The translations under genes and the position numbers were made by a program. Positions 13,588 through 32,388 of a stretch of DNA of 64,000 bases are shown here, in pieces (position 1 is the stretch's first letter; each line of letters opens with the position of its first letter). Under the pieces are notes generated by a model. It was given only the letters and a program-made list of their open reading frames with translations. It searched no databases and was not told the DNA's origin. The stretch covers positions 43,112 to 107,111 of the forward strand of contig CAZFVR010000003.1 of NCBI GenBank assembly GCA_964522215.1, written 5' to 3'. The stretch is from an uncultured Ruminococcus sp. (lineage in GTDB: Bacteria > Bacillota > Clostridia > Oscillospirales > CAG-272).

Positions 13588-14496
13588 TCATTTTTTGAGC
13601 TTTGCGGCTGCATCGCAGATCCGCCTGAGCCTATGATCCACCCCGGATTTTGATATCCTCTGCGGGTGCTTGGATGCAAGCTCCGCTATCGAGCATTCGG
13701 GTTCGCTCTCTCGGAGCACGGCCGTCTCTCGCAAATCATCCGGGAGCAGATCAAACGCCCCCGCCGCACGAAGCGCGGCTATCGCCTCAAGCTGTACGGC
13801 CGATGCACCGACCGCGCGGCTGATATTTTTGACCTCGCAATTAGATGCCCTGTTTATATTACCGCGAAACTCACGAAGCAGGTCGCCTTGTATCAGCTCC
13901 ATGGCCGCCATCGGCGCACCGGCTGAGGATAATATATCCTGTAACTCCGCGCTCTTTTTAAATATAAGCGAACATTTGCCGGATCGCTCTGAATGCCCGG
14001 GCTTTGAATGATCCTTTGCAAACAGCGCCGTCAACTTTTCGGCGCGCACATGGTCGTTTACATCAAGCTCCATGCGCACCGTCTTTTGCGGATCCGAGCA
14101 ACGCGCCGAGGATAGCAAGACCCCGGCGATGAATGCGTTTTTACAATCATCACATTTTAATTCGGGTATTACAGGCTCGCCGTTCGTATGATCACTCTCG
14201 AACGGCTCCGAGAGGCGGTAAAGATACGACGCCAGTCGGCGCGATTCAAATTCAAATACAGATATATGCCTGCCGTAGCAGACCTCGCCGCGTGCCTGCG
14301 GCTCTCTGCCATACTGTTCTGTGAGCAGTTTTTTTACGATATCTGCAACTGCATCGTTTTTTACGCGACACATGACCACGCCCTCTATCCCACACTCGGC
14401 GTTTATCAGCAAGCCGTGCAGATAGCTGCGCCTACAGCAAGCATGCCTCGGGAGCGCCTCGATAAGCTCCGCTCTTAATATATCCCCAAAGCTCAT
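13588..14496 (-). CDS. whiA: DNA-binding sporulation/cell-division regulator WhiA
   Basis: N-terminus MSFGDILRAELIE...CCRRSYLHGLL (LAGLIDADG-like scaffold) and C-terminal HTH ISKSGVDHRLRRI. Its ATG overlaps the murB stop (ATGA). Confidence 0.85.
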   Translation of the reverse strand: MSFGDILRAELIEALPRHACCRRSYLHGLLINAECGIEGVVMCRVKNDAVADIVKKLLTEQYGREPQARGEVCYGRHISVFEFESRRLASYLYRLSEPFESDHTNGEPVIPELKCDDCKNAFIAGVLLSSARCSDPQKTVRMELDVNDHVRAEKLTALFAKDHSKPGHSERSGKCSLIFKKSAELQDILSSAGAPMAAMELIQGDLLREFRGNINRASNCEVKNISRAVGASAVQLEAIAALRAAGAFDLLPDDLRETAVLRESEPECSIAELASKHPQRISKSGVDHRLRRICDAAAKLKK

Positions 14497-16142
14497 TGCG
14501 ATACCGGTATGCGGCACACCTCGCACTGAAGCGAGATGCCGTAATTTTCAAATATTACTCTTTGAATGTGCGCAATAAGTGCATTGACATCAGCGGATGT
14601 TGCACCGCCGACATTGATTATAAATCCCGCGTGCTTTTCGGATACCTGCGCACCGCCTATCCTGTATCCCTTAAGCCCCGAATCCTCGATGAGCTTGCCT
14701 GTGTAGACCGTCGGCGCACTGCGCTTAAACACGCTGCCAGCGCTTGGATATTCAAGCGGCTGTTTTTCGACACGGCGGGACATGTAATCATTCATTTTTT
14801 CAGATATCTTACTTTGATCACATTGCGTGAGCTTGAACCGCGCGGAGATGACGGTATATCTTTCGCCGTCCATGACTATGCTCTTTCTGTACCCAAACCG
14901 CATCTCGGAGGCAGGCAGGGTCACAGTCGTATCCTCGATGGCATCGTAAAGCGTTACGCTCTCGATGACGTCCGCCATCTCGCCGCCGTAAGCACCTGCG
15001 TTCATACACACAGCACCGCCCACACTGCCGGGAATGCCGTATGCAAACTCAAGCCCGCCAAGTCCCGCATTTCGCGCCTCTATGGCAACCGAAAGCAGCG
15101 TGGCACCGGCGGATGCGGTCAGAATATCACCCTCGATAGACTTTCCCCGCAGTTTCTTTGTAAATATGACCGCACCGCGAAAGCCTGCATCGTCAAATAA
15201 TACGTTTGAACCGTTGCCGAGTACGAGCCGCCGCACACTAAGCTCAGCCGCCGTATGAAGCGCCGCCACAAGCTCCCCGGCGGTCTTCGGAAACACGCCA
15301 ATATCCGCCGCACCGCCTATTTTAAAGCTTGAATGAGCGGACAGCGGCTCGGCGATCTTTAGCTCTATCCCGAGCCCCGCCAATTTTTCGGCATAGGCAG
15401 ATAGATTATTTTCGCTCTCACCGCCACCCGCATCCTTTGACTGAGGCACATACTCGACACCGAGTATACCGTAAAGCTCGCAAAGATCGTGTATAACATA
15501 TGTGGGCTTTATATTATCCGGCAGCGCCTTGTGTGTGGGATCGTACCAGCAGGTATCTATCCCCACACCGATGCCGCCGGCGATATCCGATGTCAGCGAG
15601 TCACCTATCACCAGTGCCGCCGATCTGTCAAAATCGGGGATCGACCGCTCAACATGTTCAAAAAACGCCGCCGACGGCTTTTCGTGCCCCACATCCTCGG
15701 AAATAAAGGAGCGTTCTATATACCTTTGTATCGGGGATGCACTCATTCTTTTGGTCTGTATGCTTTTGATACCGTTAGTTATAACAAACAGACGGAAGCC
15801 CGCTGCCGTAAGATCGCGACAAAGAGCATCGGCGCCGCTGATTATATAAGACTGCTCTGCAAGTCTATCTGTATATTCAACTGCCATTTTGTGTGGGTCT
15901 GCCGGGAGCGAATATTCCTCGGCAAACAATTCAAAGCGGCGGACTCTCAGCGTCTGCTTTTCTATTCCTCCGCGTTCAAGCAGCTTCCAAAGCGAATCGT
16001 TTATTCTGCTGTATCCGGTTATCAGCTCATCCGTGGGTTCGATGGAATATCTTTTGAGTGTCTCGGTAAGTGCTTGCCGCTCCGAGCGCTTAAAATCAAG
16101 CAGTGTATCATCGGCATCAAAAAGAAGATATTTGTATTTCAT
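14493..16142 (-). CDS. murB: fusion protein: N-terminal HAD-IA (YjjG-like nucleotidase) domain plus C-terminal UDP-N-acetylenolpyruvoylglucosamine reductase MurB
   Basis: HAD motifs LLFDADDTLLDF, ITNG and GDSLTSDI in residues 1 to about 230. MurB motifs SSFKIGGAAD, GNGSNVLF, GIPGSVGGAVCMNAGAYG, PSAGSVFKR and SEKHAGFIIN follow. One uninterrupted ORF, ATG 16142 behind GAGAGGA. Confidence 0.85.
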   Translation of the reverse strand: MKYKYLLFDADDTLLDFKRSERQALTETLKRYSIEPTDELITGYSRINDSLWKLLERGGIEKQTLRVRRFELFAEEYSLPADPHKMAVEYTDRLAEQSYIISGADALCRDLTAAGFRLFVITNGIKSIQTKRMSASPIQRYIERSFISEDVGHEKPSAAFFEHVERSIPDFDRSAALVIGDSLTSDIAGGIGVGIDTCWYDPTHKALPDNIKPTYVIHDLCELYGILGVEYVPQSKDAGGGESENNLSAYAEKLAGLGIELKIAEPLSAHSSFKIGGAADIGVFPKTAGELVAALHTAAELSVRRLVLGNGSNVLFDDAGFRGAVIFTKKLRGKSIEGDILTASAGATLLSVAIEARNAGLGGLEFAYGIPGSVGGAVCMNAGAYGGEMADVIESVTLYDAIEDTTVTLPASEMRFGYRKSIVMDGERYTVISARFKLTQCDQSKISEKMNDYMSRRVEKQPLEYPSAGSVFKRSAPTVYTGKLIEDSGLKGYRIGGAQVSEKHAGFIINVGGATSADVNALIAHIQRVIFENYGISLQCEVCRIPVSQ

Positions 16143-16335
16143 CACGGCATCCTCTCAAAAATCGTTATGGTCGTTTCATTCTCTACTATTATACACCAAC
16201 ACGCCATGTTTTTCAACCGTTTTTTGCCTTGTTTTGCGAATAATCGGCGCAAGTATGCATCGGGGTATTGCTTTTTGTCGTACTTTGTAGTATAATATAT
16301 TATATATATTCTTCGATATGTATTTGAGGTATAAA

Positions 16336-23765: not shown

Positions 23766-24752
23766 ATGAAAAAAATACCCGAAAAAATCAAGAAAGTTGC
23801 GGCTCTTTTTATGGCGTTGGCACTCGCCTTTGCCACATCACTGGCCGTGTATGCCTCGCTGGTATACGACAGCGCAGTTGACCCGGTAGTTTCACTTTCA
23901 GGACTTGCGCAGTATGTTGAGGATTATGTATTGTCCCCGCTCTCAAATCGCATTGACGATCTCACCGCCAGAGTCAGCGCACTGGAGCTTGGCGGCGGTG
24001 GCGGCGGTGGCGGAGGAGGCATGAACTCCGAAGCCTATCAAGCAATAATGTCACGTATAGCCGCGCTCGAGGAGCAAGGCAAGTCCAAGGATGCAGAGAT
24101 CGCGGCACTAAAAAACAAGCTGCAATCGCTTGAGAACGATCACGGCTCAAGACTCACCGAGATCGAGTCAAACTACTCGAATATATCAAAGCAGATAGAT
24201 TCAATAAATGACTCGATAACCGGCATAAAGAGCAGTATTGAAACACTTCGCGCCGACAAGAACAGTCTTGAAAAGAACTTTTCCGACCTTTCAAACAAAT
24301 ACCTGAGCGTGACAAAGGAGATGAACTCGCTTCGTGCTTCTATCGACGCGCTGACAGGAGATAGCGGTGCGATCACAGATCTGCGCGCAAAATATGATGC
24401 GCTGAGGGAGACAATAGAGCAGCTCCAAACTAAGGCGGGCGTTATGTACAGACCTGTATTTGTTGATGCGGGACAAACGATACGCGCCAAAAACGCCGAC
24501 GAGGGCGTGCTGGTGATAGTAAGATCCGGCTATGCCGTGATAGAATCCCCCTACAATACCTCCGGCACACTGCAGGGCGTGAACGATCTTACCACCGGCG
24601 AGGAGCTTTACAACGGTGCGGATGCGCCGCTGATGCACAACCTGCTGATCCCGCGCGGCGCAGAGGACGGCCGCGGTATTCGCATTGAGAGCTACGACGG
24701 TGCTTATGTTATGATAGGCGGCGAGTACATAATTGAAGATGCCCATGAATAA
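23766..24752 (+). CDS. hypothetical secreted or membrane-anchored coiled-coil protein with a poly-Gly hinge
   Basis: Signal/anchor VAALFMALALAFATSLAVYA, a run of 10 Gly, about 150 aa of heptad-like sequence (LENDHGSRLTEIESNYSNISKQIDSINDSITGIKSSIETL...), and a beta-rich C-terminal domain of about 95 aa. Confidence 0.5.
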   Translation: MKKIPEKIKKVAALFMALALAFATSLAVYASLVYDSAVDPVVSLSGLAQYVEDYVLSPLSNRIDDLTARVSALELGGGGGGGGGGMNSEAYQAIMSRIAALEEQGKSKDAEIAALKNKLQSLENDHGSRLTEIESNYSNISKQIDSINDSITGIKSSIETLRADKNSLEKNFSDLSNKYLSVTKEMNSLRASIDALTGDSGAITDLRAKYDALRETIEQLQTKAGVMYRPVFVDAGQTIRAKNADEGVLVIVRSGYAVIESPYNTSGTLQGVNDLTTGEELYNGADAPLMHNLLIPRGAEDGRGIRIESYDGAYVMIGGEYIIEDAHE

Positions 24753-28756: not shown

Positions 28757-29998
28757 TTAAATTATATGTATACCGCAAGACGGTACCGAATTAAGCTCGT
28801 CAATACCATACCTTTCGCATTTGCGGTGCTCAAAAAAAGCAACAGCGGCATCACCCGCCATCGCATAGGTGAGGATATCCTCCGCCTGCTCAAGATACGG
28901 TGCGATCTCGGTACGCAGTGTGTCAAGCTCCGGCTCTAAAAGATCCGCCGGGCGCGTGAGCACCATTGATGCATTGCCGCCCAGGGCCGACATAACATCG
29001 GGAGATGGCGGCATGGGCAGTCTACCGTAAAGCCCGCTGACGAGCGCACGGTAGCCGGCCGAAAGCTCGGGGGTGGCGGCAGCCCCATTACTGTGGTAAA
29101 GCGCCGCGGCGCGCTCAATTATAAGCTCGTCAAGCGGCGCGGCCATAGTTGGCCAGCCCGCCTCACGCCTTGCACGCTCAATATAATCATCGGGTGGAAT
29201 AGAATGCCCATCAGTGGGGGTGGCTTTGTTTGCGAGCGGTAACGCCTTTTTGATCTCGTCCCATGCGCCGCCGAGCAACTCGCGGCCGATCGGGGCAGGA
29301 ATGCCGCAAAGATCGATATCAACTCCCGCCACACGATCGTTGGCAAGTATATCACGCGGCGATAGACACTGCATGTCACCTGCACCGATCACAAGAGGGA
29401 TCGATATCGCGCCGCCGACCACCGAGGTGAGTTCACTAAGCGTTTGGGTGTCAAGCTTTTGCTCCGGGTCGAGGATACAAACACGATCCGCACCAGCTCC
29501 CTCAAGTAGTGAGGCATAGCCGGCAAAAAAAGCAGCGCTGCAAGCGGGCCCCGTGGTGTACACCATTGCAGCCTCAAGGTCAAGATCATACTTTTTTGCG
29601 GCTCTCATCACCGTTTCGATATTGCGCGGATCGTTTAACGCATCGTAAACGCGGATGGCGCCAATACCGTTCTCCGCCGTGCGCGCCACCAGATATTCAA
29701 CAACATCATCGGCATAGATCCCACGTCCCAGCAGTGATTGACCACGCAAAGTAAGGCGCAGACGTGTGTTTTTGACACCATCACGCAACGCACGCAGTTG
29801 CTCCCAAGGATCGATGGCCGAGCGCTCGGTAAGCGACTCACCAAGGAAGCTGTCAGCTCCCCAAAGCTCTGCCGCACAAAGTCCCGCACTATCGATCGCA
29901 GCGAGGAGTGATGAAAGCTTTTCTCGGTCAAGTCCACGCAAAAGATTTGGTGGGACAACGGCGCAGATGCGCTTTTGCGCGCATGGTGCAACATTCAT
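28757..29998 (-). CDS. 5S/OadA-like carboxyltransferase-fold protein lacking a biotinyl domain and the canonical metal ligands (probable pseudoenzyme)
   Basis: Clear similarity to the OadA/PycB/5S TIM barrel: DPWEQLRALR, LRGQSLLGRGIYADDVVEYLV and RVYDALNDPRNIE. The C-terminal PYC_OADA-like region has RPADLLEPELD. ATGA overlap with the upstream small ORF. Confidence 0.7.
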   Translation of the reverse strand: MNVAPCAQKRICAVVPPNLLRGLDREKLSSLLAAIDSAGLCAAELWGADSFLGESLTERSAIDPWEQLRALRDGVKNTRLRLTLRGQSLLGRGIYADDVVEYLVARTAENGIGAIRVYDALNDPRNIETVMRAAKKYDLDLEAAMVYTTGPACSAAFFAGYASLLEGAGADRVCILDPEQKLDTQTLSELTSVVGGAISIPLVIGAGDMQCLSPRDILANDRVAGVDIDLCGIPAPIGRELLGGAWDEIKKALPLANKATPTDGHSIPPDDYIERARREAGWPTMAAPLDELIIERAAALYHSNGAAATPELSAGYRALVSGLYGRLPMPPSPDVMSALGGNASMVLTRPADLLEPELDTLRTEIAPYLEQAEDILTYAMAGDAAVAFFEHRKCERYGIDELNSVPSCGIHII

Positions 29999-30183
29999 CT
30001 TTTCAGACCCGCATCCGTCACTGACGGCTTATCGACAGTTCGCGGCAGGTCGGCGAAAGCGGCGTTAGGTGCATTCTCATTATCGCACACGTCCTCCGCG
30101 GGCAGTTCCTCAACCTCAACGATATAGTCCCGCCCCTCTACCTTTACCTTAAATCTTCTTTTCTTTGTATTATTCTCGCTCAT
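29995..30183 (-). CDS. small protein resembling only the N-terminal beta-hairpin of 1.3S/MmdC/GcdC biotin carriers (no biotinyl domain)
   Basis: RFKVKVEGRDYIVEVEEL matches the KxxVxVNGxxYxVxVE N-terminal signature of decarboxylase/transcarboxylase biotin carriers. There is no (A/V)MKM motif. Start ATG 30183 lies 7 nt after GGAG; the ORF track extends to 30225. Confidence 0.4.
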   Translation of the reverse strand: MSENNTKKRRFKVKVEGRDYIVEVEELPAEDVCDNENAPNAAFADLPRTVDKPSVTDAGLKR

Positions 30184-30212
30184 TTTCATCTCCGTATCTG
30201 CCCGGGCGACTA

Positions 30213-30605
30213 TCATCTGTTCCACGGATGAGCGCCGCCGGAGCGCTTAAATGCAACCACTCTGAATTTAGGCACAGTTTTTTTCTCTGTCTCAGCCTCG
30301 GCATTTATATACGCCGTTACGGCCGCTGTTACTGCGGCAACCAAACGCGCCTCCTCGGCTCGTCTTAACGCCTCGGCGAACATGGCCTCCCGGCGCTCGC
30401 GTTCAAGCTCCGCCGCGATGCGTGCTCTTTCTTTTTCTGCCGCCGCTTCCGCCAAGCGCCGTTCGGCTTCAAGGCGTTCTGCCGCCGCGCGTTCGGCTTT
30501 TTTCTTTTTATTTAAAAACATGAGTAATATGACAGCTACCGATACAACTACCGCCACTACGATGGCAGCAATGATGATAGGCCGCAGATCCATTCCGGCG
30601 TTCAT
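30213..30605 (-). CDS. OadG-family-like membrane anchor subunit with an inserted charged coiled-coil
   Basis: N-terminal TM IIIAAIVVAVVVSVAVILLMFL. C-terminal LVAAVTAAVTAYI...FRVVAFKR...W resembles the clostridial OadG/MmdD-type ending. ATGA overlap with the carboxyltransferase stop. Confidence 0.55.
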   Translation of the reverse strand: MNAGMDLRPIIIAAIVVAVVVSVAVILLMFLNKKKKAERAAAERLEAERRLAEAAAEKERARIAAELERERREAMFAEALRRAEEARLVAAVTAAVTAYINAEAETEKKTVPKFRVVAFKRSGGAHPWNR

Positions 30606-32134
30606 CGTTGTCTGCGCCCCTCTCTGCCACCCGGCCGCGTGTGCACACGCGACTTTGCTGCCAGCATCATGACAGCCGAGGTTATCCTTGCGCGCAGCTC
30701 CTGCGGCTCGATAATATCATCGATCTGCCCGCGCATGGCGGCATCTGCAGGGGATGCAAGCTCGCTTTGCCACTTTGCCTCAAGCTCCTCGCGGCTCACC
30801 GTAACATCATTGGCGCAGATGCGGTCATTCCAAACAAATGCCACAGACGCCTCCGGCGACATCGGGCTGATGCACGCCTCAGGGAGCGCCAAAGCAATAT
30901 CGCCGCCAACCGACCGTGATGCCATAAGCGTAAAACCAATACCATAGGCATGACCGAGTATCACGCTGATCTTTGCATTTTCGGATACTGCCATTGCGCG
31001 GTACAGCTCGGATAGCGCCTCGGCATATGCCGCCGCATCAGGTTCTTCCCTGTCCGCGCCATCGCTGGCAACAAGTGTGATCAGCGGTATACCAAAGCTA
31101 TCGCAAAAGCATATTATATGCGCCAGTCTTCGGCAAACATCACGGGTGATAACACCGCCGCGGACTGTCGGCTCGTTTGCCGCAAGACAACACACAACGC
31201 CACCGATATATGCCAGCCCTACCGAAAGCTCCGGTGTGTTGCCGCCAAGGAATATCACATTATCATCATCAGACAGTGCGGTTATAAGACGTCTGCCGCT
31301 CGGCATGCCGGTACCGTCCTTTTGCGCGACCTGTCCCAATGCATATAACAGCTCCGGCGGCAGCGGGCGATCGAGCACCTGCATGTCGGATACGCGAGAG
31401 CCCTCGTTGCAGTTGGACGGCAGATATGAAAGCAGCTCGCGGGTGCGTAGATAAAGCTCATCCTCGTCATCCACAACTATATCGCAGATATCCTCCAGTG
31501 GGTCGACTGCAGGCTTCGCGTCGCCCCCTATAAACGGAGGGACAACATAAAATTCACCCTGCCCTCTCACGGCCAGTTTTATATCAAAGGATGCGGCAAG
31601 CGTTGCCATGCCACCGCCGCATATACCCGGAACGAGAGCAACGGTCGGCAGAATACCGCGGGCGGCCTCAAACTGCCGCATGACCTCACCATATGCTGCC
31701 AGTACACGCGAGCCCTCATAGATCGATGCACCGTGTGAATCAAATATTCCCACTATCGGTGCACCGTTGCGAATTGCAAGGCGTATAAGCTCTGTTATCT
31801 TGCCCGCCGCCACGCTGTCAAACGCTCCGCACATGCGGGCATTATCCTGCACAAAGGCGTAAACAAGTCTGCCCCCAACCGCTCCGTAGCCTGTTATAAC
31901 GGATGAAAAGACCGCGCCCGGTTCATCCTCGACATCACTGCGTGCTATGTACGCGCCTGTTTCCGCGAATGTGCCCATATCAAACAAAGCCGTGATACGC
32001 GCGCGAGCGTTATATCCGCCATTCGCTTCTTTTATTGAGCTAATGTCGATATTTTTCAGCATTTCGCTGAGCTTGCTTGCGGCAATCGCCCCAAGCACAC
32101 TTTTTTTGCGCTCACTGCGATCGGTATTTTCCAT
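30602..32134 (-). CDS. carboxyltransferase (12S / MmdA / PccB family), divergent
   Basis: Aligns by eye along its length with the 12S/PccB family: ARARITALFDMGTFAE, ITGYGAVGGRLVYAFVQD, DSHGASIYEG, PGICGGGMATLA, CDSFGIPLITLV and RGQIDDIIEPQELR. Confidence 0.75.
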   Translation of the reverse strand: MENTDRSERKKSVLGAIAASKLSEMLKNIDISSIKEANGGYNARARITALFDMGTFAETGAYIARSDVEDEPGAVFSSVITGYGAVGGRLVYAFVQDNARMCGAFDSVAAGKITELIRLAIRNGAPIVGIFDSHGASIYEGSRVLAAYGEVMRQFEAARGILPTVALVPGICGGGMATLAASFDIKLAVRGQGEFYVVPPFIGGDAKPAVDPLEDICDIVVDDEDELYLRTRELLSYLPSNCNEGSRVSDMQVLDRPLPPELLYALGQVAQKDGTGMPSGRRLITALSDDDNVIFLGGNTPELSVGLAYIGGVVCCLAANEPTVRGGVITRDVCRRLAHIICFCDSFGIPLITLVASDGADREEPDAAAYAEALSELYRAMAVSENAKISVILGHAYGIGFTLMASRSVGGDIALALPEACISPMSPEASVAFVWNDRICANDVTVSREELEAKWQSELASPADAAMRGQIDDIIEPQELRARITSAVMMLAAKSRVHTRPGGREGRRQR

Positions 32135-32388
32135 AGTAGATCCGTTCCGCCACCACTCGGGCGGCTGTTTTTTCTTGATAGATGTTTATTTACAAGACCG
32201 TATAACTGATTATTATTGTAACGACGATCCTTCCGACCTCGCTGTGCTCGGCCACCGACCTTTACACAAGAGAGGCGTGGGGATAGTGCTAGCATTGCAT
32301 GAGAACATAAAACAACAGCAGAAATTTAATAATAATCCAATTTCTATATTTCTTTAAAATAAAGACCGAACTCTTGCCAAGCTGCTTA

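Follow-up and report, generated by a model that had tools for sequence, protein, structure and literature searches.

A four-gene module on the minus strand (28757-32134) was analysed in a stretch of 64,000 nucleotides (nt) from an uncultured Ruminococcus sp. (GenBank GCA_964522215.1, contig CAZFVR010000003.1, positions 43,112 to 107,111), which is referred to here as the window. Comparison with related operons showed the module to be, as judged from gene order and alignments, a reduced descendant of a Clostridial five-gene operon that encodes a carboxyltransferase (CT), a gamma subunit, a biotin carrier, the OAD_beta pump and OadA, and one that has been retained by selection. Three changes from the parent operon were apparent in these comparisons: the beta gene is gone, the linker and biotinyl domain of the carrier are gone, and the active site of OadA has been destroyed. 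The CT is most likely the only live enzyme of the module, inside a tethered scaffold of dead parts.

The module consists of genes for an MmdA/12S-type CT of 510 amino acids (aa; 30602..32134), an OadG/MmdD/GcdD-type anchor of 130 aa (30213..30605), a micro-protein of 62 aa that we call the stub (29995..30183) and an OadA/5S-like protein of 413 aa (28757..29998). Two of the three junctions are ATGA start/stop overlaps, which were read directly from the sequence: caacgATGAacgcc at 30602-30605 joins the CT stop to the anchor start, and aaaagATGAatgtt at 29995-29998 joins the stub stop to the OadA-like start. A first-pass annotation made from the letters alone had described these four open reading frames (ORFs), their overlaps and their identities (12S/MmdA-like CT, OadG-like anchor, carrier-hairpin stub and 5S/OadA-like protein), and this description was borne out. 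The ORF of the stub reaches 5' to a GTG at 30225 (29995-30225, 76 aa). The start is likely to be the ATG at 30183, because a GGAG lies 6 nt upstream of it and this ATG is kept in the two closest relatives (L017 and L018), unlike the 5' extension.

Among canonical proteins, those closest to the CT and to the OadA-like protein are encoded in five-gene operons (L009-11, L015, L016, L023-27), and the matching gene order shows the module to descend from such an operon. The canonical operons encode a CT of 455-504 aa, OAD_gamma, a Biotin_lipoyl carrier of 120-142 aa (EAMKME), OAD_beta of 392-404 aa and an OadA of 465-471 aa with HMGL-like and PYC_OADA domains. They bear PF00364 and PF03977 and were annotated by their depositors as oxaloacetate decarboxylase. 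The carrier hairpin and the C-terminal motifs of the gamma subunit are common to the reduced and the canonical operons.

How widely the exact four-gene arrangement is conserved, a question raised in the first-pass annotation, was also determined. The module was found in ~25 loci, 14 of them in gut metagenome-assembled genomes (MAGs) that represent GTDB species, with identities down to 36-45%. Some loci came from protein look-ups (L001-L008, L014); a pattern scan recovered 20 species-representative genomes, of which 14 have the module (L017-22, L028-33, L035-36). Every one of these loci lies in a MAG of uncultured Clostridia, assembled from the gut or faeces of humans, horse, sheep, goat and cattle. 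The reduced modules fall into two sequence groups in two different genomic contexts. Group A, to which the window belongs, has the syntenic order XerC-like, MutS-domain protein, AsnC, aminotransferase, module, DeoC, PHP and SpoIID; the aminotransferase/AsnC pair beside the module is syntenic in this group only. Group B, the L014 type, has another neighbourhood and a stub of 41-46 aa. The dN/dS values, computed against relatives at 85% and 65% OadA-like identity, were 0.075-0.10 for the CT, 0.15-0.19 for the anchor, 0.28-0.34 for the stub and 0.17-0.22 for the OadA-like gene. These values indicate that all four genes are under purifying selection and are not decaying. Since the module is both conserved and under selection, the earlier description of it as repurposed seems reasonable.

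The biotinyl domain and the pump were then searched for by tblastn. Neither a canonical biotin carrier (BCCP) query nor a canonical OadB query, used for the OAD_beta pump (PF03977), gave a match in the 64-kb window. The ±10-kb flanks of 20+ related, reduced loci were negative for both as well. The same OadB query found OAD_beta in every five-gene canonical locus covering that position. No OAD_beta domain was found among the window ORFs scanned, the stub had no Pfam match to a biotinyl domain (PF00364), and none of the module products contains an (A/V)MKM biotinylation motif. The first-pass annotation had stated that the domain, the pump and the motif are all missing, and these results agree with it. 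The stub ORF also encodes an EMKM at 30183-30195, within its 5' extension. This was rejected as a biotinylation motif and is probably due to chance, because the motif is not conserved (EIKM in L017) and no biotinyl fold surrounds it. A biotinyl domain hidden by a frameshift in the stub, which had been named as a point to check, was rejected as well: only 215 nt separate the anchor stop from the OadA-like start, so there is no space for such a domain, and tblastn was negative.

These findings also bear on the idea that the locus is a decaying pseudogene cluster or the product of an assembly or frameshift artefact. Every example does come from a metagenome assembly, but the same architecture occurs in ~25 independent assemblies from five host types, the ORFs are intact with coupled starts, dN/dS is far under 1 for the four genes, and the lost domain has neither space nor a tblastn trace. 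We consider this explanation effectively refuted.

Another possible explanation is that the window encodes part of an ordinary Na+-pumping decarboxylase whose oadB, full BCCP and live OadA are dispersed in the genome. The components of such pumps can scatter, as seen in the lone OadA of L012 and L013 and in L034, where CT, gamma, BCCP and OadA genes occur without beta. No beta or BCCP gene lies within the 64 kb, however, and the module has its own dead OadA-like gene and truncated carrier, which are conserved across 36-45% identity and would be needless in a split operon. A dispersed pump is therefore improbable.

The OadA-like protein matched only PF02436 in Pfam, with no match to PF00682. 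Canonical OadA sequences all carry the motifs ITETxLRDxHQS, ICIKDM and LHTHxTSG and the segment GTSQP...YQVPGGMLSNL. In the alignments, all four are replaced or deleted in the window protein and in all its orthologues. The losses comprise the four metal ligands (Asp, carbamyl-Lys and His-x-His), the catalytic-Thr loop and a segment of ~55-80 aa that holds the GTSQP and QVPGGM motifs; the carbamylated Lys184 of the solved 5S structure aligns to Leu176. An AlphaFold model of the protein (pLDDT 87, pTM 0.88) contains eight strands, and in Foldseek it resembled 5ks8 (the beta subunit of a two-subunit pyruvate carboxylase), 1rqb (5S) and 2nx9 (V. cholerae OadA) with a TM of ~0.8. The protein has kept its barrel-type fold as well as PYC_OADA at its C-terminus. 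With the predicted fold kept, the catalytic residues lost and purifying selection (dN/dS 0.17-0.22) acting on the gene, we judge the protein to be a catalytically dead pseudoenzyme. The family is narrow, with ~five 50%-identity clusters scoring above the canonical OadA proteins (432-674 versus <=333 bits) in a library of 1.84 billion representatives. One metagenomic protein of 510 aa with PTS EIIA/EIIB Pfam domains (P0100) showed 51% identity over 46% of the OadA-like query and may be a chimeric or mis-called ORF.

The stub gave only weak NCBIfam matches, to the first ~35-45 residues of BCCP/MmdC models (PRK06549, E 5e-4; MmdC, E 0.03). It aligns residue-for-residue with the N-terminal hairpin of full-length carriers, MRKFxVxVNGxxYxVEIEE, and ends where their Ala/Pro linker starts. 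It comprises the hairpin of ~20 residues and a variable charged tail, with no linker and no biotinyl domain.

The anchor had no direct match to PF04277 in the Pfam scan. A profile of the anchor and its orthologues was aligned by hhalign to canonical gamma subunits that bear PF04277, and the C-terminal 50 aa matched with a probability of 99.4% (E 1e-21). The other profile searches suggested at the outset gave PF01039 for the CT and PF02436 for the OadA-like protein, as reported here. As in the small single-helix gamma/delta anchors of Oad, Mmd and Gcd, the 130-aa protein has an N-terminal hydrophobic transmembrane (TM) helix, which is followed by KKKK; its C-terminus holds the conserved segment AAVTAAVTAY...FRVVAFKR...PWNR. 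The group A anchors contain an E/R/K/A-rich helix of ~60 residues (KKKKAERAAAERLEAERRLAEAAAEKERARIAAELERERRE...; residues ~33-95 in the window), whereas the canonical gamma subunit has an Ala/Pro linker there. This segment looks like a rigid single-alpha-helix or coiled-coil spacer.

Some relatives differ in the anchor. In L018 (9488-9781), a relative at 65% identity, the OadG-like protein has only 97 aa and the TM helix is gone by an apparent in-frame loss, while the other three genes are intact. Some lineages may do without a membrane tether. Membrane tethering, as first proposed, holds for most members, but L018 has lost the helix. A three-gene variant of group B without a stub ORF was seen at L029:9673-9969 and L005:1303-1620. 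Its anchor has no AAITAA helix, FRPVVF replaces FRVVAF, and there is a long acidic C-terminal tail.

The CT matched PF01039 with an E of 7e-53, and its best PDB sequence matches were 1x0u, 1vrg and 1on3 (E 1e-47 to 1e-52), which are MmdA-like, PCC-beta and 12S chains. Its score against TIGR01117 (mmdA) was 218 bits, far under the cut-off of 999, and the MdcD model gave a sub-threshold match to the N-domain (47.8 bits; cut-off 228). Both oxyanion-hole motifs are present in the same form as in the biotin-using canonical sisters, and the GG motif of the N-domain is intact. The oxyanion glycines correspond to what we take to be Gly182 and Gly419 in PccB numbering, for which a literature search gave no source. 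The C-domain motif is GHAYGIGFTLM, compared to RKAYGGAY in PCC-beta-type enzymes. Degeneracy of the CT on account of this odd YGIGF motif was considered and rejected. The motif is not a lesion, because canonical operon members with biotin and a pump show the same form: the biotin-using sisters carry YG[PA]GF or YGAAY, with GKAYGPGFVYM in canonical L024 close to GRAYGPGFVYM in reduced L028, and GSAYGAAYTLM in canonical L009. The YG[IVMP]GF form is the same in L024 and L028.

Conservation of the CT was compared with that of its dead partner. Columns that are invariant in eight canonical CTs were kept at 90-92% in the CTs of the reduced groups (90% in the window CT), while the OadA-like protein of the same operons, which served as an internal control, kept 43-45% of its own (45% in the window protein). 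Since the CT retains its invariant positions while the dead subunit of the same complex has lost over half, its pattern is that of a working enzyme. Identity between CTs of reduced and canonical groups was 0.50-0.64, compared to 0.43-0.52 between two canonical groups, and the N and C half-domains behaved alike. Because the reduced-canonical identity is not below the canonical-canonical identity, there is no sign of relaxation in either half-domain. Among 112 columns invariant in seven canonical CTs, only two changes are common to groups A and B, and both are conservative (F to Y and K to R). On this evidence the CT is not degenerate; it appears to be catalytically intact and to be the most constrained gene of the module.

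The first-pass annotation had held that the chemistry-bearing parts are missing or mutated. This is correct for the dead 5S/OadA-like protein, the biotinyl domain and the pump, but not for the 12S-like CT. It had also proposed that the whole assembly might be non-catalytic, in which case the CT would be inactive too and the module would act as a membrane-tethered scaffold or an acyl-CoA-binding sensor. The loss of the cofactor- and energy-bearing parts, the presence of a pseudoenzyme subunit, a genomic context that is housekeeping rather than metabolic and the long E/R/K-rich spacer helix gained in the group A anchor would all fit this proposal. The CT does not: it keeps its oxyanion motifs and 90-92% of the invariant positions that its dead partner has largely lost, with a dN/dS of 0.075-0.10. 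A wholly non-catalytic assembly is unlikely, and less likely than one with a live CT, because the 12S-like CT is intact.

Homology and the conservation of the hairpin suggest that the four products would assemble as in the parent complex. A 12S-like CT oligomer would bear the dead OadA-like subunits, glued to it by the hairpin peptide, and the gamma-like anchor would keep the whole close to the membrane. The N-terminal peptide of 1.3S holds 12S and 5S together in transcarboxylase, as known from the older biochemical literature. In the Gcd system, GcdC is anchored to the other subunits by its N-terminal ~30 aa, and GcdD/OadG serves as the link between the soluble head and the membrane (PMC7145394). 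This assembly is proposed because the retained pieces match the roles of the Gcd carrier N-terminus, the delta/gamma linker and the 1.3S N-terminus. It also accords with the first-pass observation that the parts retained are those used for assembly (the anchor, the carrier N-terminus and both CT folds).

The CT would then be the sole catalytic subunit and would move a carboxyl group between a methylmalonyl-/malonyl-type acyl-CoA and biotin; this biotin would be borne by a carrier whose gene lies elsewhere in the genome. The CT most likely still transfers a carboxyl group, because its acyl-CoA and biotin half-sites are both conserved, and a carrier acting in trans is suggested because the CT evolves like a working biotin-using enzyme. 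We hold this exchange with a carrier encoded elsewhere as our best explanation, but tentatively. In this reading, the complex itself can neither pump Na+ nor use oxaloacetate.

Several points weigh against this explanation. Eight canonical CTs and group B keep the Asp of the C-domain VD.PG motif without exception, but most group A CTs have Asn at this position and the window CT has Ala (A356, about 31067-31069). This change could represent an altered biotin half-site in group A. The high conservation of the CT could instead reflect the structural constraint of a scaffold. Neither the 64-kb window nor any of the ±10-kb flanks yielded a gene for a biotin carrier, BirA or the pump, and it would be odd to delete a tethered carrier and then to rely on a foreign one. 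Also, we infer the assembly of the four products from homology only.

The VD.PG change in group A, together with the intact GG motif of the N-domain and the lack of a carrier gene nearby, would suit a biotin-independent acyl-CoA decarboxylase. Here, the CT would decarboxylate methylmalonyl-/malonyl-CoA via its thioester oxyanion hole, and the other subunits would stabilise and place it. There is a CT-fold precedent in MdcD-MdcE, which also accepted malonyl-CoA in vitro (PMC5534430). However, the C-domain, which forms the biotin side, is conserved like the N-domain, and groups A and B share only the F to Y and K to R changes, with no convergent remodelling of the active site. Furthermore, a lone decarboxylase needs no three selected accessory genes. 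This activity is thus doubtful, and carboxyl exchange with biotin on a carrier encoded elsewhere remains the explanation that we prefer.

Whether the reduction happened once or twice was addressed with neighbour-joining (NJ) trees with bootstrap and with quartet-site counts. In the CT tree, group B joined a canonical group, C2 (L023-27), with group A outside (NJ bootstrap 200/200; quartet sites seven versus two). The CTs of B and C2 share a 3-4-aa insertion and an LHMLLGK ending, and the stub and anchor motifs agree with the CT tree. The OadA-like tree united A and B (200/200; four quartet sites versus none), and both are long branches. The gene trees thus conflict over the group B loci (L014, L028-32, L036) and C2, and therefore reduction occurred either twice or once with later recombination. 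It is possible, though rather unlikely, that groups A and B were reduced independently, each losing OAD_beta, the biotinyl domain and the active site of OadA but keeping the CT, the anchor, the docking hairpin and the shell of OadA. The biotin-less shell would then have a new function under positive selection. It might decarboxylate acyl-CoA without biotin, or act as a membrane-tethered scaffold that binds acyl-CoA or has a regulatory role. The operon at L034:3868-7481 has no OAD_beta but encodes a live OadA and a complete biotin carrier (EAMKIQ) together with a CT and a gamma-like TM protein, which is a transcarboxylase-like intermediate architecture.

The 254-nt intergenic leader 5' of the CT gene (32135..32388) presumably carries the operon promoter, although confidence in this is low. 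It contains a single weak sigma-70-like match (32358-32329), which is not above chance expectation. Promoter and terminator scans were not better than shuffles, and no Rfam match to a regulatory RNA was found in the leader at E <= 0.1. Metabolic context was rejected as a clue to function since the window genes are housekeeping: SecA, DnaE, PBP1, WhiA, MurB, RF1, Sua5, ParC/GyrA-like, SpoIID, DeoC, PolA, Ffh and LDH. At 14493-16145 of the window, one 550-aa ORF fuses an N-terminal HAD-type hydrolase domain to MurB (FAD_binding_4 and MurB_C). The gene at 23766-24752 overlaps the SpoIID start and has syntenic counterparts in L001 and L004; its product is a coiled-coil protein of 328 aa with a hydrophobic N-terminal helix and a nine-glycine run.

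In this natural, conserved case, a swinging-arm complex has been stripped of its arm, its pump and one active site of two, and its docking peptide lives on as a separate micro-protein. An active CT would be either a carboxyltransferase that borrows a carrier in trans or a second route to biotin-independent decarboxylation by a CT fold. With an inactive CT, the module would be a rare example of a pseudoenzyme that comprises a whole complex. Either way, it is a natural dissection of the parts needed for the assembly of such complexes. No description of a pseudoenzyme OadA or of a biotin-less Mmd/Oad complex was found in the literature searched. Such loci of gut Clostridia should not carry an oxaloacetate decarboxylase or carboxylase annotation.

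Biotin-dependent decarboxylases and transcarboxylases are textbook swinging-arm machines, and the module shares many of their parts. With the Clostridial five-gene operon it shares the gene order, a CT that is 42-48% identical, the N-terminal hairpin of the carrier, the FRVVxFxR of the gamma C-terminus and a conserved C-terminal domain of OadA. It differs in having no OAD_beta, no Ala/Pro linker or biotinyl domain of the carrier, and an OadA-like protein without metal ligands or the ~55-80-aa active-site segment. The MmdA-type CT and the single-helix delta/gamma anchor are also found in Mmd (MmdA, D, E, C, B) and Gcd (GcdA-D), although the window module has no beta pump or biotin. We know of no OadA-like subunit described for Mmd. 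The Mmd/Gcd carrier docks to the complex by its N-terminal ~30 aa, and no OadA-like subunit is among those of Gcd, so this subunit of the module is extra in comparison (PMC7145394). Compared to Oad, Mmd and Gcd together, the module has a PF01039 CT with both oxyanion motifs but neither OAD_beta nor a biotinyl-lysine carrier.

The Propionibacterium transcarboxylase (12S, 5S and 1.3S) likewise has a counterpart for each of its parts in the window, namely a 12S-like CT, a 5S-like subunit with a predicted fold similar to 1rqb (TM ~0.8) and a 1.3S-like N-terminus. The window module differs from it in that the 5S-like subunit has no metal centre, the 1.3S-like protein has no biotinyl domain and is therefore not a biotinylated carrier, and a membrane anchor has been added. 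MdcD-MdcE is similar in that a CT-fold protein works without biotin (PMC5534430). It differs in its split beta/alpha subunits, its dedicated ACP (MdcC) and its transferase (MdcA), none of which the window has; MdcC and MdcA were not found among the window ORFs scanned with Pfam. The sub-threshold match to the MdcD model is the sole similarity. Judged by sequence, the module descends from the Oad/Mmd/Gcd and transcarboxylase machines but has departed from them in the features that define them: the beta pump, the biotinyl carrier and the 5S metal centre.

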